Source of the DNA: Escherichia coli
Lineage (GTDB): Bacteria; Pseudomonadota; Gammaproteobacteria; Enterobacterales; Enterobacteriaceae
Assembly: GCF_024502345.1 (NCBI RefSeq)
Contig: NZ_JALDNN010000001.1
DNA length: 64,000 nucleotides
Direction: 5' to 3' (one strand)
The position numbers and the translations under genes are program-made. Below, in pieces: positions 1,182 to 6,176 of the stretch. The first letter of the stretch is position 1, and the number at the start of each line of letters is the position of its first letter. The notes below the pieces were generated by a model, which searched no databases, was not told the origin of the DNA, and saw nothing but the letters and a program-made list of their open reading frames with translations.

Positions 1182-1657
1182 ATGAGTGATATTATTTACC
1201 TGACCATAACCGGAGAACAACAAGGATGTATTTCCTCTCGTTGTGGAACGAGCGCATCAATAGGTAATCGCTGGCAGATTGGCCATGATGATGAAATCTT
1301 CGCGTTCTCGCTCTCTAATAGTATTACGAATACAGGCAAAGGGTCATAATTGCATGGCCTTAGTTTCTGTAAATTGATTGACAAAAGCTCCCCGTTACTT
1401 ATTAACGCTATTAACAATAACGAGCAGTTGTTCATGGAGTTTGACTTCTATCGGATCAATAGGTTTGGTCGATGGGAGAAATATTACAACATTCAACTCC
1501 GCGGCGCGCTCTTATCAGCAATCAATCACCTGTTTACTGAGAACAATCTGGATACAGAAGCCATCACTGTCAGTTATGAATATATACTCTCCAGGCATCT
1601 GATTGCTAATACTGAATTTAGTTATTTGGCATTTCCCGATAACTACAACCGTCTGTT
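1182..1657 (+). pseudogene. hcp: T6SS Hcp-family tube protein gene, disrupted by in-frame TAA (1347-1349) and truncated at 1657 by IS903-like insertion
   Basis: Translation MSDIIYLTITGEQQGCISSRCGTSASIGNRWQIGHDDEIF..GKGS*LHGLSFCKLIDKSSPLLINAINNNEQLFMEFDFYRINRFG.. matches Hcp family signature (KLIDKSSP, FxFYRIN); N- and C-parts are in the same frame separated by TAA. Confidence 0.7.
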
Positions 1658-2714
1658 GGCTTTGTTGAATAAATCGAACTTTTGCTGAGTTGAAGGATCA
1701 GATCACGTATCTTCCCGACAACGCAGACCGTTCCGTGGCAAAGCAAAAGTTCAAAATCACCAACTGGCCCACCTACAATAAAGCCCTCATCAACCGTGGC
1801 TCCATAACTTTCTGGCTGGATGATGAAGCTATTCAGGCCTGGTATGAGTCAGCAACACCTTCTTCACGAGGCAGACCTCAGCGCTATTCTGACCTTGCCA
1901 TCACGACTGTGCTGGTCATTAAACGCGTATTCAGGCTGACCCTGCGCGCTGCGCAGGGCTTTATTGATTCCATTTTTTCTCTGATGAACGTTCCGCTACG
2001 CTGCCCGGATTACAGCTGTGTCAGCAGGCGGGCAAAGTCGGTTAATGTCAGTTTCAAAACGCCCACCCGGGGTGAAATCGCACACCTGGTAATTGATTCC
2101 ACCGGGCTGAAGGTCTTCGGTGAAGGCGAGTGGAAAGTCAAAAAGCATGGCCAGGAACGCCGCCGTATCTGGCGTAAGCTGCATCTCGCCGTTGACAGTA
2201 AAACACATGAAATCATCTGCGCTGACCTGTCGCTGAACAACGTTACGGACTCAGAGGCCTTCCCCGGGTTAATCCGGCAAACCCACCGGAAAATCAGGTC
2301 AGCCGCCGCCGATGGCGCTTACGATACCCGGCTATGTCACGATGAACTGCGGCGTAAGAAAATCAGCGCGCTTATCCCTCCCCGAAAAGGTGCGGGTTAC
2401 TGGCCCGGTGAATATGCAGACCGTAACCGTGCAGTGGCTAATCAGCGAATGACCGGGAGTAATGCGCGGTGGAAATGGACAACAGATTACAACCGTCGCT
2501 CGATAGCGGAAACGGCGATGTACCGGGTAAAACAGCTGTTCGGGGGTTCACTGACACTGCGTGACTACGATGGTCAGGTTGCAGAGGCTATGGCCCTGGT
2601 ACGAGCGCTGAACAAAATGACGAAAGCAGGTATGCCTGAAAGCGTGCGTATTGCCTGAAAACACAACCCGCTACGGGGGAGACTTACCCGAAATCTGATT
2701 TATTCAACAAAGCC
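1658..2714 (+). mobile_element. IS903-family (IS5 family) insertion sequence, 1057 bp, 18-bp terminal inverted repeats, flanked by 9-bp direct target duplication CCGTCTGTT (1649-1657 and 2715-2723)
   Basis: Left end GGCTTTGTTGAATAAATCG at 1658, right end GATTTATTCAACAAAGCC ending 2714; identical 9-mers on both flanks read directly from sequence; single DDE transposase ORF inside. Confidence 0.9.
1735..2658 (+). CDS. IS903-family DDE transposase (307 aa if GTG start at 1735; six-frame ORF extends to 1690)
   Basis: IS5-family transposase motifs (DSTGLKVFGEGEWKVKKHG..RRIWRKLHLAVD); lies inside the inverted-repeat-bounded element. Confidence 0.8.
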   Translation: MAKQKFKITNWPTYNKALINRGSITFWLDDEAIQAWYESATPSSRGRPQRYSDLAITTVLVIKRVFRLTLRAAQGFIDSIFSLMNVPLRCPDYSCVSRRAKSVNVSFKTPTRGEIAHLVIDSTGLKVFGEGEWKVKKHGQERRRIWRKLHLAVDSKTHEIICADLSLNNVTDSEAFPGLIRQTHRKIRSAAADGAYDTRLCHDELRRKKISALIPPRKGAGYWPGEYADRNRAVANQRMTGSNARWKWTTDYNRRSIAETAMYRVKQLFGGSLTLRDYDGQVAEAMALVRALNKMTKAGMPESVRIA

Positions 2715-2852
2715 CCGTCTGTTTATACCACGGCCAAAAACTAAAGCTGGTAATGGTTCAAAACACTTAATAGTAAAGCGGTTGGCAGACTGCTTGCTGC
2801 TGGCGGCATATACAATGGGAATATCGAAGGATTCAGGGAAACAGCAGACAAG

Positions 2853-3395
2853 TTGGGGGGAGATGCACCTGCTGGTTACGATCAATTTATGGATAACAAA
2901 GGGTTACTCATCGCTGGTGCTTCAATAGTTGCTGGAGCAGTTCTGGGGAGAATGAGACTCCCTGATTTGGAATCACTTGAGCATTTCGGAGCCAGAGGAG
3001 CAGTATCAGGAAGACCATTTAATCCCGACCTTGCCGGTGGTCCAATAGAAAATCTGACGACAGATGGCGTAACAATCAACAGGGAAGGTATCGCTATTGT
3101 TGAAAAACACATAGCCAGATTTGGTCATGACCCTGTAAATGAAGTGATGATCAATAGACTGAAAGACATTGAGAAAGGAAAAATCCCCCCAGAACAAGTA
3201 GATCTTAACTTCTATACTCATGAGTGTCGGGAATATCAGCGTTACTGTAATCTTGGTTGGGAAACAGGACAACCTGATGGTGACGCAGGCTATGCACTCT
3301 GGAATCATACGCATACTGCTACTCTAGAAGATTATAAACTTAAGGGAGAACTTAATGACTTATACCACCAGGATGCACTTGACTATGATAACTGA
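2853..3395 (+). CDS. Orphan toxin-like C-terminal domain ORF (possible extension domain of the disrupted Hcp, Hcp-ET type); frame is open back to 2754 without ATG
   Basis: 180-aa ORF with TTG start and no ATG upstream in frame, directly downstream of hcp/IS; overlaps the next small ORF; no catalytic motif recognised by eye. Confidence 0.35.
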   Translation: MGGDAPAGYDQFMDNKGLLIAGASIVAGAVLGRMRLPDLESLEHFGARGAVSGRPFNPDLAGGPIENLTTDGVTINREGIAIVEKHIARFGHDPVNEVMINRLKDIEKGKIPPEQVDLNFYTHECREYQRYCNLGWETGQPDGDAGYALWNHTHTATLEDYKLKGELNDLYHQDALDYDN

Positions 3396-3630
3396 AACTG
3401 AAATTAACGTACTGAAAGTTATGGCTGAGAAAGATATAAACTGGAACTGGATGAATCTCGATCGCACACTATCCATAAGGCAAATTCCAGGATTCGGTAA
3501 TGTTGTTAACATTGTTAACAAATTAGCTAACGAGGGTTTGGTTATTATTGAGGATAGCGGACATAAGTCTATGCCTCACTACCACGTTACTGAAAAGGGA
3601 TACAATTTCGTGAAAAGTGAGAATAAATAA
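3385..3630 (+). CDS. Small ORF in immunity-protein position (81 aa from ATG 3385; alternative start 3355)
   Basis: ATG overlaps the last codons of the upstream ORF (ATGATAACTGA arrangement), typical of translationally coupled toxin-immunity pairs; function not recognisable. Confidence 0.3.
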   Translation: MITETEINVLKVMAEKDINWNWMNLDRTLSIRQIPGFGNVVNIVNKLANEGLVIIEDSGHKSMPHYHVTEKGYNFVKSENK

Positions 3631-3776
3631 CGTAGCGTTGATTACTGAACAAATCGCTCAGGATTATATTTTGCGTAAAAATGATTCGGTTATTTCTGTA
3701 TCTGAACGGGCGCAGATAGCAAAATGGCTTCCGGTGATGGAAGCCATCAGATTATTGGCAAAGTGCGCGTTGTTCA

Positions 3777-3808
3777 TGCCGGATGCGGCGTGAACGCCTT
3801 GTCCGGCC
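3777..3808. repeat. REP (repetitive extragenic palindrome) element
   Basis: GCCGGATGCGGCGTGAACGCCTTGTCCGGCC palindromic unit. Confidence 0.6.
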
Positions 3809-3914
3809 AACAAAACTCAAAAATTCAATAAATTGCATAAATTATGTAGGCCTGGTATCAGGCAGTTTTGCCTCTTTCATCGTACTGCAATTTACAGTGA
3901 CTCGTTAATATTCA

Positions 3915-6176
3915 TCATCCCCGACGCAAATTCTGCGCCGCCTGCACCATGTTCGCCAGTGCCGCGCGGGTTTCTGGCCAGCCGCGCGTTTTCAGGCCAC
4001 AGTCCGGGTTGACCCACAGGCGCTCTGCCGGAATGCGTTTTGCCGCTTTCTTCAGCAAGGCTTCAATCCATTCCACGCTCGGTACGTTTGGCGAGTGAAT
4101 GTCATAGACGCCTGGACCGATTTCATTCGGATAATCAAACTCTTCAAACGACTCCAGCAACTCCATGTCGGAACGCGAGGTTTCGATGGTGATGACGTCT
4201 GCATCCAGTGCCGCAATCGAATCCATGATGTCGTTGAACTCGCAATAACACATGTGAGTGTGGATTTGTGTGTCATCTTTCGCCACGGCGGCGTTGATAC
4301 GGAAGGCCTCCACGCCCCACTGGAGATATGCATCCCAGTCGCTACGACGCAGCGGTAAACCTTCGCGCAGCGCCGGTTCATCAATCTGGATGATGCCAAT
4401 TCCTGCGGCTTCCAGGTCCGCCACTTCATCACGCAGCGCCAGCGCAATTTGTTTGGCGATGGTTTCACGGCTGACATCTTCACGCGGGAACGACCAGCAG
4501 AGAATGGTCACCGGGCCAGTCAGCATCCCTTTCACCGGTTTATCAGTCAGAGATTGCGCATACTTCGCCCACTCCACGGTAATCGGTGCCGGGCGGCTAA
4601 TGTCACCAATGACAATCGGTGGCTTCACGCAGCGGGAACCGTAGCTCTGTACCCAACCGTTTTGCGTAAAGACAAATCCGTCGAGGTGCTCGCCAAAGTA
4701 TTCCACCATGTCATTACGCTCGGCCTCGCCATGTACCAGCACATCCAGTCCCAAACGTTCCTGTTCAACAATGGCCTGCTTGATATGTTCCGCAATGCCC
4801 GTGCGGTAGTTGTTGGCGTCGAGATTACCCTTTTTGAAATCCAGACGCAGGGTACGAATTTCCGTGGTTTGCGGGAAGGAACCAATCGTGGTGGTCGGCC
4901 ACGCTGGCAGTTTAAAACGCGCACGCTGGGCTTCGGCACGCACTTCATAGACATTCGCACGCTGGCTGTCCTGGGCGGTGATCGCCGCCAGACGCTTTTC
5001 TACTGCCGGGTTATGTACACGAGTAGAGTGACGACGCGCCTGAATTGGAGCGCTCCACTCTGCCAGAGCTGCCGTATCACCACTGTTCAGCGCATCTCGC
5101 AGCAGTGCCAGTTCATGACATTTTTGCAGGGCGAAGGCAAACCAGCTTTTCACTTCTGCATCAAGACGCGTTTCCACGCTCAGGTCGATGGGGCTGTGCA
5201 GCAACGAGCAGGAAGATGCCACCCACAAATCACGTTTGCCGACAATGTCCTTAATTTGCGCATATTTCTCAGTAAGATCGGCGCGCCAGACGTTACGACC
5301 ATTGATCAGACCCGCAGACAGCAGCCAGTCAGAAGGCAGGCGCTTGTGCAGTTCAACAACGTCATCTTTACCATGTACAAGGTCCACATGCAGCCCCTGA
5401 ACAGGCAGCGCAGTAATCGTGTCGAGATTTGGCGTTACGCCTTCAAAATAGGTGGTCAGCAGCAGTTTCACCTGTCCCTGGAGCGCGTCGTAAGCGGGTT
5501 TGTATGCGTCCAGCCACGCCTGTGGTAGTTCCAGTACCAGCGCGGGTTCATCAATCTGTACCCACTCGATGCCGCGTTTCGCCAGTTCTGCCAGCACTTG
5601 CTGATAAACCGGCAGAATGTCGTTCAGCAGGCTAAGGCGGTCAAACTGTTCACCTTTCACTTTCCCCAGCCACAGGTAAGTAACCGGCCCCAGCAGCACA
5701 GGCTTAACGTTGTGGCCCAGCGCCAGCGCCTCGTCCACTTCCTCCAGCAGCTGCGTCCAGGTCAGTTTGAACTGTTGGCCTTTAACGAACTCCGGCACCA
5801 TGTAGTGATAGTTGGTGTTAAACCATTTGGTCATTTCCGCTGCCGCCGCAGGTTCGCCAGTCGGCGCACGTCCACGACCAATACGGAACAGGGTGTCGAT
5901 ATCTACCGAACCGTCTTTGTTCTGATGACGTGGCGGAACATTACCCAGCAGCAAACTGGTGGTCAGTACATGATCGTACCAGGCAAAATCGCCCACCGGC
6001 AGCAGGTCGATACCCGCTTGCTTTTGTTGATCCCAGTGACGAGCACGCAGTTCACGCCCTACTGTCAGCAGTTCTTCACGCGTGGAGTTCCCCGCCCAAT
6101 AACTTTCTTGCGCTTTTTTCAGCTCGCGACGCAGGCCAACGCGAGGGAAACCGAGGGTGTGATTCAATATTGTCAT
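3915..6176 (-). CDS. metE: Cobalamin-independent methionine synthase
   Basis: 753-aa ORF, N-terminus [29 protein letters not shown] typical of MetE; divergent from metR as in E. coli. Confidence 0.97.

Follow-up and report, generated by a model that had tools for sequence, protein, structure and literature searches.

What is encoded by the two short, overlapping reading frames that lie between ysgA and metE in this Escherichia coli? The stretch analysed here (the window: 64,000 nt of contig NZ_JALDNN010000001.1, one strand) includes ysgA (60–788), metE (3915–6176, minus strand) and metR, and thus holds the E. coli/Shigella ysgA–metE interval, which contains an Hcp-like frame from 1182, a 1057-bp insertion sequence (IS) element and a toxin-like open reading frame (ORF) paired with a small ORF. 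The toxin-like frame is open from 2754, following a TAA at 2751–2753, has TTG 2853 as its earliest start codon and ends at TGA 3393–3395, giving 180 aa; ATG 3385 begins an 81-aa ORF that ends at 3630 and overlaps the 180-aa ORF by 11 nt. An initial annotation, made from the letters alone, had described a 180-aa ORF that lacks an ATG start and overlaps its small neighbour by 11 nt, and we recover both the frames and their overlap in the sequence, with the same 81-aa product annotated elsewhere in RefSeq. We conclude, with a probability of roughly 0.88, that what survives here is a decayed Hcp-ET gene (Hcp with a C-terminal extension toxin), of which the region covers the 3′ two-thirds, together with its cognate immunity gene.

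This reading is supported by an intact allele at the same site. In the O145:H28 strain RM12761 a single intact tssD of 1149 bp (382 aa) is followed by a 246-bp gene overlapping it by 11 nt; strain F9792 has the identical arrangement, an intact tssD plus the overlapping small gene, and intact alleles of 382 aa and 377 aa occupy the ysgA–metE site in other E. coli. The intact protein (WP_025380640.1 in RM12761) begins with an Hcp (TssD) domain, continues with a conserved linker and ends in the 135-aa toxin domain, at residues 248–382. Specifically, residues 1–147 are Hcp/TssD (TIGR03344, E 1.6e-36; PDB Hcp 6a2v, E 1e-14), and in the window 1350–1655 matches Pfam T6SS_HCP (E 2e-11). Once the IS element and one copy of its target-site duplication are removed, the restored window gene differs from the RM12761 allele by seven substitutions and one indel over 1384 bp, and its parts can be placed as follows.

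1182–1657, plus strand: 5′ part of the Hcp-ET pseudogene, from the Hcp (TssD) domain to the IS903 insertion point, by base-for-base alignment with RM12761 tssD

2724–2987, plus strand: Hcp-to-toxin linker, read in the Hcp frame as far as 2756 and, from 2757 on, in that of the toxin, aligned to the intact allele

2988–3395, plus strand: C-terminal toxin domain of 135 aa with its stop codon; family unclassified

3385–3630, plus strand: putative immunity gene, 81 aa, intact, winged-helix-like, with an alternative ATG at 3355

The locus is widespread in the species. A megablast search with 2724–3700 as query found it in 848 of 5,426 complete E. coli genomes, chromosomal every time, so that about 16% of complete genomes carry the toxin domain, which is intact in some, including O145:H28 and ST131-type strains. 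DNA of the Hcp N-terminal domain is present in 846 E. coli genomes vs 848 for the toxin part, and this Hcp and this toxin family are therefore a fixed pair in E. coli, in two allelic forms. Database fragments of the toxin locus also derive from S. sonnei, S. boydii and S. dysenteriae.

In the window the toxin gene has been inactivated three times over, by a stop codon, by an IS903B-type element and by a 1-nt deletion.

1347–1349, plus strand: first lesion, an in-frame TAG (CAG, Gln56, in the intact allele), through a C>T change at 1347 vs the intact RM12761 allele

1649–1657: left copy of the target-site duplication, 9 bp CCGTCTGTT, one of the identical 9-mers that flank the IS element

1658–2714, plus strand: second lesion, an IS903B-type element of 1057 bp with 18-bp perfect terminal inverted repeats and a transposase ORF at 1690–2658

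2715–2723: right copy of the target-site duplication, 9 bp CCGTCTGTT, the other of the identical flanking 9-mers

2757–2758, plus strand: third lesion, a 1-nt deletion in a T run (GGTTTC>GGTTC), the sole indel vs the intact allele

The TAG is common to FDAARGOS_943, whose record is annotated ‘internal stop’, and to FDAARGOS_943/944-type alleles; it divides the Hcp domain into ORFs of 55 aa (1182–1349) and 112 aa (1350–1688). The element is 94–97% identical by megablast to copies annotated ‘IS5-like element IS903B family transposase’, agrees with IS903/IS903B (IS5 family) in its 1057 bp, 18-bp inverted repeats, 9-bp duplication and DDE transposase, and is otherwise ordinary; the Hcp/IS903 junction was absent when 5,426 complete E. 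coli genomes were searched, so that the stretch might stem from a Shigella or some other lineage rich in IS elements. The T-run deletion is the frameshift that parts the Hcp-derived frame from the frame of the 180-aa ORF. It recurs in FDAARGOS_943 and USMARC-49610, each annotated ‘frameshifted’: the former has all eight window differences and lacks IS903, while the latter combines the T deletion with a separate 22-bp deletion. Since the deletion is common to other strains, it is real and inherited, and decay continued independently afterwards. FDAARGOS_943 also has an IS1A between ysgA and the broken tssD (L002 1405–2102), in an allele that otherwise matches the window's, and the locus appears to gather IS elements independently across strains. 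With the toxin gene dead and the immunity gene intact, the window locus is now at most an orphan immunity locus.

How well is the small ORF supported as an immunity gene? Its 81-aa product is identical to WP_000627421.1, which is found 3′ of intact alleles. An ATG at 3355 with a good Shine–Dalgarno sequence would give a 91-aa alternative, whose extension is not conserved in homologues; because of this conservation we favour the start at 3385, with 3355 as a possible second choice. In six of six other carriers of the toxin domain (two pyocin-like, two Rhs, one PAAR and one Tc-like), an ORF of 79–95 aa starts no more than a few bases from where the toxin ends, and a hidden Markov model (HMM) of the enterobacterial small ORFs detects the PAAR-linked ORF (E 6e-10) and, weakly, an Rhs-linked ORF (0.007). 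The proposal of the initial annotation, a toxin C-terminal domain followed by its immunity gene, is thus supported by the intact Hcp fusion in RM12761 and by the small ORF that follows the domain across carriers.

Allelic variation points the same way. A variant toxin allele, about 86% identical in DNA, is present in B2 strains (CFT073, L004 1025–2732; others, L010–L012); strains with this B2-type allele comprise CFT073, Nissle 1917, LF82, APEC O1 and ST131-like strains, and the variant toxin is intact in WP5-S18-ESBL-07 and MCJCHV-1; an internal stop interrupts it in CFT073 and APEC O1. Located 3′ of the variant toxin are its own small ORF, roughly 55% identical to the window's, and then a second ORF, roughly 90% identical. 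The CFT073 ORFs show the classic layout of a cognate plus an orphan immunity gene, and the small ORF diverges together with the toxin allele. The small ORF has no obvious N-terminal signal sequence by eye. When toxin and small ORF were modelled as a single chain joined by a (GGGS)8 spacer, both parts were confident and the predicted template modelling score (pTM) reached 0.78 despite 30 disordered residues; the small-ORF part has the order helix–helix–helix–strand–strand–helix, a winged-helix topology, and is compact and soluble in appearance (predicted local distance difference test, pLDDT, 85–96). The model suggests that toxin and immunity protein may form a defined complex.

The winged helix raises an alternative, namely that the small ORF encodes a transcriptional regulator of the MarR type in place of an immunity protein, which we consider improbable. 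NCBI does name some of its homologues ‘MarR family transcriptional regulator’, and the modelled topology is accompanied by weak winged-helix matches (HTH_45, E 0.04; Lrs14, E 0.026); no Pfam or NCBIfam profile is reached at threshold, and the sub-threshold matches, at E 0.03–0.1, are to winged helices only. Against such a role, the product falls below the Pfam/NCBIfam cut-offs and, at 81 aa, is about half the size of MarR (about 140 aa); its gene stands directly 3′ of the toxin domain, overlapping or nearly abutting it, in every carrier type examined; it diverges with the toxin allele and has a displaced orphan copy in CFT073; and the toxin–immunity fusion model reaches its pTM of 0.78. The ‘MarR’ name of the homologues is a fold-level resemblance only.

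Downstream, a 58-aa ORF (3617–3793) overlaps the end of the immunity gene and is a RefSeq ‘hypothetical protein’ with two lengths across records. A GC-rich palindrome, GCCGGATGCGGCGTGAACGCCTTGTCCGGCC, at about 3740–3830 resembles a repetitive extragenic palindromic (REP) element, and a terminator-like hairpin comes next, at 3850–3863.

The toxin domain itself belongs to a large family that is shared among delivery systems. HMMER, run exhaustively over 1.84 billion cluster representatives, returned 472 relatives at E ≤ 1e-3, of which 345 are at E ≤ 1e-10, and among the 472 the domain is nearly always at the extreme C-terminus. Its N-terminal partners include Hcp, PAAR, Rhs, SpvB/TcdB (Tc-like), Cloacin plus Pyocin_S, Pyocin_S alone and LysM/He_PIG, as well as plasmid proteins; carriers include Salmonella, Citrobacter, Massilia and Kordia, and the spread covers Proteobacteria, Bacteroidota and one cyanobacterium-type Rhs protein. 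The initial annotation had recommended looking for homologues in which the toxin-like domain is fused to delivery proteins, and such fusions, to Hcp, Rhs, PAAR and others, are found in the family. Its companion suggestion, that profile searches might place the 180-aa ORF and the small ORF in known families, came to nothing, with no Pfam or NCBIfam family above threshold for either.

Should the 180-aa ORF instead be taken as a standalone, expressed ‘colicin’ gene with its own start? NCBI's Prokaryotic Genome Annotation Pipeline (PGAP) calls ‘colicin’ proteins of 150–180 aa here in strains with the broken gene, and there is an in-frame ATG at 2889. Each such call, however, comes from a locus whose tssD is marked as frameshifted or as interrupted by an internal stop, and the starts of the ‘colicin’ fragments vary among records; in strains without the lesions the same codons are the interior of the single 382-aa protein. 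Moreover, no sigma-70-like promoter was found upstream of the 180-aa ORF, the count being below the shuffled expectation. An independent gene at this position is therefore very unlikely, and the Hcp-ET pseudogene accounts for the frame.

Family-wide alignment leaves eleven invariant residues in the toxin domain (domain numbering): R9, G34, H41, F45, D72, Y76, H78, E79, E82, W105 and H109. The AlphaFold2 model is highly confident (pLDDT 97.3, pTM 0.91) and essentially all-helical, and it has no fold match among solved structures. Searches of Pfam, NCBIfam, PADLOC and PHROGs returned nothing for the domain, the PHROGs match being to the linker only; 50 diverse relatives showed no consistent Pfam family; PDB sequence searches, whether started from the single protein or from a profile of 50 sequences, gave Hcp structures or noise only; and literature searches by protein accession and locus yielded no description of the domain.

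An alternative that takes the database names at their word is that the domain is an HNH endonuclease or a colicin-type DNase. Fragments of the locus are indeed named ‘HNH endonuclease’ and ‘colicin’ at source, and one of the 50 family members gives a marginal HNH_4 match (E 0.018). The query, however, has no HNH or Colicin-DNase Pfam match, none is consistent over the 50 members, the HNH beta-beta-alpha metal motif was detected neither by profile nor by fold, and the confident all-helical model resembles none of the solved folds, among them those of HNH proteins. Shared modules explain the names: true HNH toxins on IncHI2 plasmids have the same linker, which is why NCBI labels some fragments of the window type ‘HNH endonuclease’, and the domain itself occurs in Pyocin_S/Cloacin bacteriocins. 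We accordingly give this assignment little credence and retain an Hcp-ET toxin of an unclassified family.

In Salmonella (L005 5871–7750) a colicin-like bacteriocin with the toxin domain precedes a second Pyocin_S plus Colicin_D fragment, and two Colicin_immun genes, beside phage GPA and antiterminator Q genes, complete the series; the region is prophage-like and seems to hold bacteriocin and immunity genes stacked in an array.

The linker that joins Hcp to the toxin is a module in its own right. In the intact protein it spans residues about 169–236 and contains two glycine-rich hydrophobic stretches, AVGRLLAAGGIYNG and GLLIAGASIVAGAVLG; the window linker includes the hydrophobic segment LLIAGASIVAGAVLGRM. 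It matches phrog_31266 and phrog_14497 (E about 1e-14), and tblastn found it in 453 plasmids, 432 of them conjugative, while a word-indexed protein search with the linker returned mostly fragments. The same linker occurs in other settings. In S. houtenae it connects an Hcp of the same type with a glutamine deamidase of papain fold, and Imm35 comes next. An IncHI2 plasmid has an N-terminal domain of ~140 aa (MLHHCQAKSLDDIYLEDI...) and the linker ahead of a Pfam HNH domain, with a YrhA-family gene next, and this linker–HNH gene has lytic-transglycosylase/HAD genes on one side and traG on the other. In pAF18_1, the same ~140-aa N-terminal domain and linker carry the toxin domain of the window, followed by a 90-aa homologue of the small ORF. 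The plasmid linker loci examined were L014 3078–4139 and L015 2575–3899, with 2757–2960 as the window counterpart. On plasmids the linker module may be a plasmid- or conjugation-associated toxin delivery module.

Within this linker lies the homopolymer to which the initial annotation had drawn attention.

2855–2860, plus strand: G6 tract, codons TTG GGG GGA of the conserved peptide K-L-G-G-D; not a lesion

The tract and the frames around it are as that annotation described them, the G6 lying where two frames run in parallel that a +1 slip would join. With IS903 and one target-duplication copy removed, the Hcp-derived frame is open to 2928, in parallel with the toxin frame that opens at 2754, so that one extra base anywhere in the shared stretch would fuse the frames. 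That G6 is the inactivation site, or a slippery or phase-variable site that rejoins the Hcp and toxin frames, is hardly credible: both frames are open over it, one added G would make them continuous, and runs of at least six G are scarce (only three in the window), but the intact RM12761 allele carries the same G6, no compared allele differs there from RM12761, the tract encodes the conserved LGGD (the peptide LGGDAPAGY is conserved in other Hcp-ET and plasmid toxins), and a slip would remove neither IS903 nor the stop codon upstream and would keep about 34 residues scrambled. Slippage would imply a frame change at the homopolymer and a tract of variable length, and G6 is invariant across the compared alleles. 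Of the two possibilities raised for it, an inactivating frameshift is refuted by the sole indel, the T lost about 100 nt upstream, and by the identity of G6 in intact and broken alleles; chance is the outcome, and the parallel open frames around the tract are coincidental. A C6 run at 3185–3190, one of eight runs of at least six C in the window, lies inside the toxin domain (codons I-P-P-E) and is likewise unchanged vs the intact allele.

How, then, might the intact system work? We propose that the intact allele would make one 382-aa protein whose Hcp domain would load it into the tube of a type VI secretion system (T6SS), and that the glycine-rich hydrophobic segments of the linker may help the toxin to reach the cytoplasm of the target. 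There the 135-aa all-helical domain would damage a cytoplasmic target, probably as a metal-dependent enzyme of the nuclease type using the invariant H78/E79/E82/H109 cluster, and the 81-aa winged-helix-like protein from the overlapping gene would bind and neutralise it. The invariant histidine and acidic residues on helices 3 and 4 of the toxin model resemble a metal site. The most likely activity is that of a cytoplasm-acting, probably metal-dependent nuclease-type enzyme, an assignment of modest confidence: in bacteriocins the domain follows PF06958, the linker also carries HNH, the immunity protein has no obvious signal sequence, and the conserved residues are histidine and acidic. A more ambitious proposal, which we regard as tentative and somewhat doubtful, is that the domain is an enzyme whose fold and mechanism lie outside the solved structures, with a helix-borne site formed by D72/Y76/H78/E79/E82 plus H109, that T6SS (Hcp, PAAR, Rhs), Tc-like, colicin/pyocin and plasmid proteins all employ it, with a miniature winged-helix immunity protein to neutralise it, and that the linker is a cytoplasm-entry module.

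Four points weigh against our overall reading. First, toxicity and neutralisation are predictions from sequence for the whole toxin family. Second, the ORFs downstream of the pyocin- and Tc-context toxins were not detected by the enterobacterial small-ORF HMM. Third, the pTM of the single-chain fusion is only an indirect sign of toxin–immunity binding. Fourth, whether the host has a T6SS cannot be read from a 64-kb window.

The comparison with described systems favours an Hcp-ET origin all the same. Hcp-ET effectors have been divided into five types (Ma et al., 2017, Virulence 8:1189, as given in the reviews PMC6730261 and PMC6099711): ET1, HNH-DNase; ET2, DUF2235/Tle1; ET3, Pyocin S3; ET4, Colicin-DNase; and ET5, papain-like. 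Those of Enterobacteriaceae likewise have an Hcp N-terminus, an extension toxin, an immunity gene directly 3′ and an orphan locus outside the T6SS cluster, and the intact allele, with its Hcp domain, its module-sharing C-terminal extension and its downstream 81-aa ORF, would by sequence be counted among them. The S. houtenae Hcp with glutamine deamidase and Imm35 has the same Hcp-plus-linker scaffold and fits the published ‘papain-like’ ET5 type. In contrast to ET1–ET5, no HNH, DUF2235, Pyocin_S3, Colicin-DNase or papain-fold Pfam match was found in the domain or in 50 relatives; and, unlike the described Hcp-ET effectors, the window gene is a pseudogene, and in E. coli its Hcp N-terminus is paired with essentially only this toxin family. 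T6EC4 (Geller et al., 2024), also an Hcp whose C-terminus lacks annotation, was considered as the same toxin; it is Tox-REase-5-like and therefore different.

Beyond Hcp, the family behaves as polymorphic toxins do (Rhs, CdiA, PAAR, bacteriocin), with one domain on many delivery modules, a 3′ immunity gene, co-divergence of the two and orphan immunity (CFT073). Unlike polymorphic toxins with a short VENN or DPXGL junction, the junction in the window family is a linker of roughly 70 aa shared with a plasmid carrier. In nuclease bacteriocins (colicins E2–E9 and D, S-type pyocins) the cytotoxic domain lies 3′ of the PF06958 inner-membrane translocation domain (PMC9040868). Similarly, in Salmonella and others (P0122, P0173, P0035) our toxin domain stands directly after PF06958 (Pyocin_S) with a small gene downstream, and in one bacteriocin locus it is beside a Colicin_D/Colicin_immun pair. 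It has no sequence or fold similarity to the cytotoxic domains of HNH, pyocin S3, E3, E5 and D toxins, and its putative nuclease activity is suggested by this association.

The window locus is thus an ordinary decayed polymorphic-toxin locus that retains its immunity gene, and its ‘colicin’ or ‘toxin-like’ ORF is a fragment of an Hcp-ET pseudogene. For this toxin/immunity pair the database names ‘colicin’, ‘HNH endonuclease’ and ‘MarR family regulator’ mislead. The toxin family to which the fragment belongs is common, confidently folded and uncharacterised, without a Pfam family or a structural relative, and the toxin domain, once characterised, would extend the Hcp-ET types to six and might reveal a toxin mechanism not seen before.

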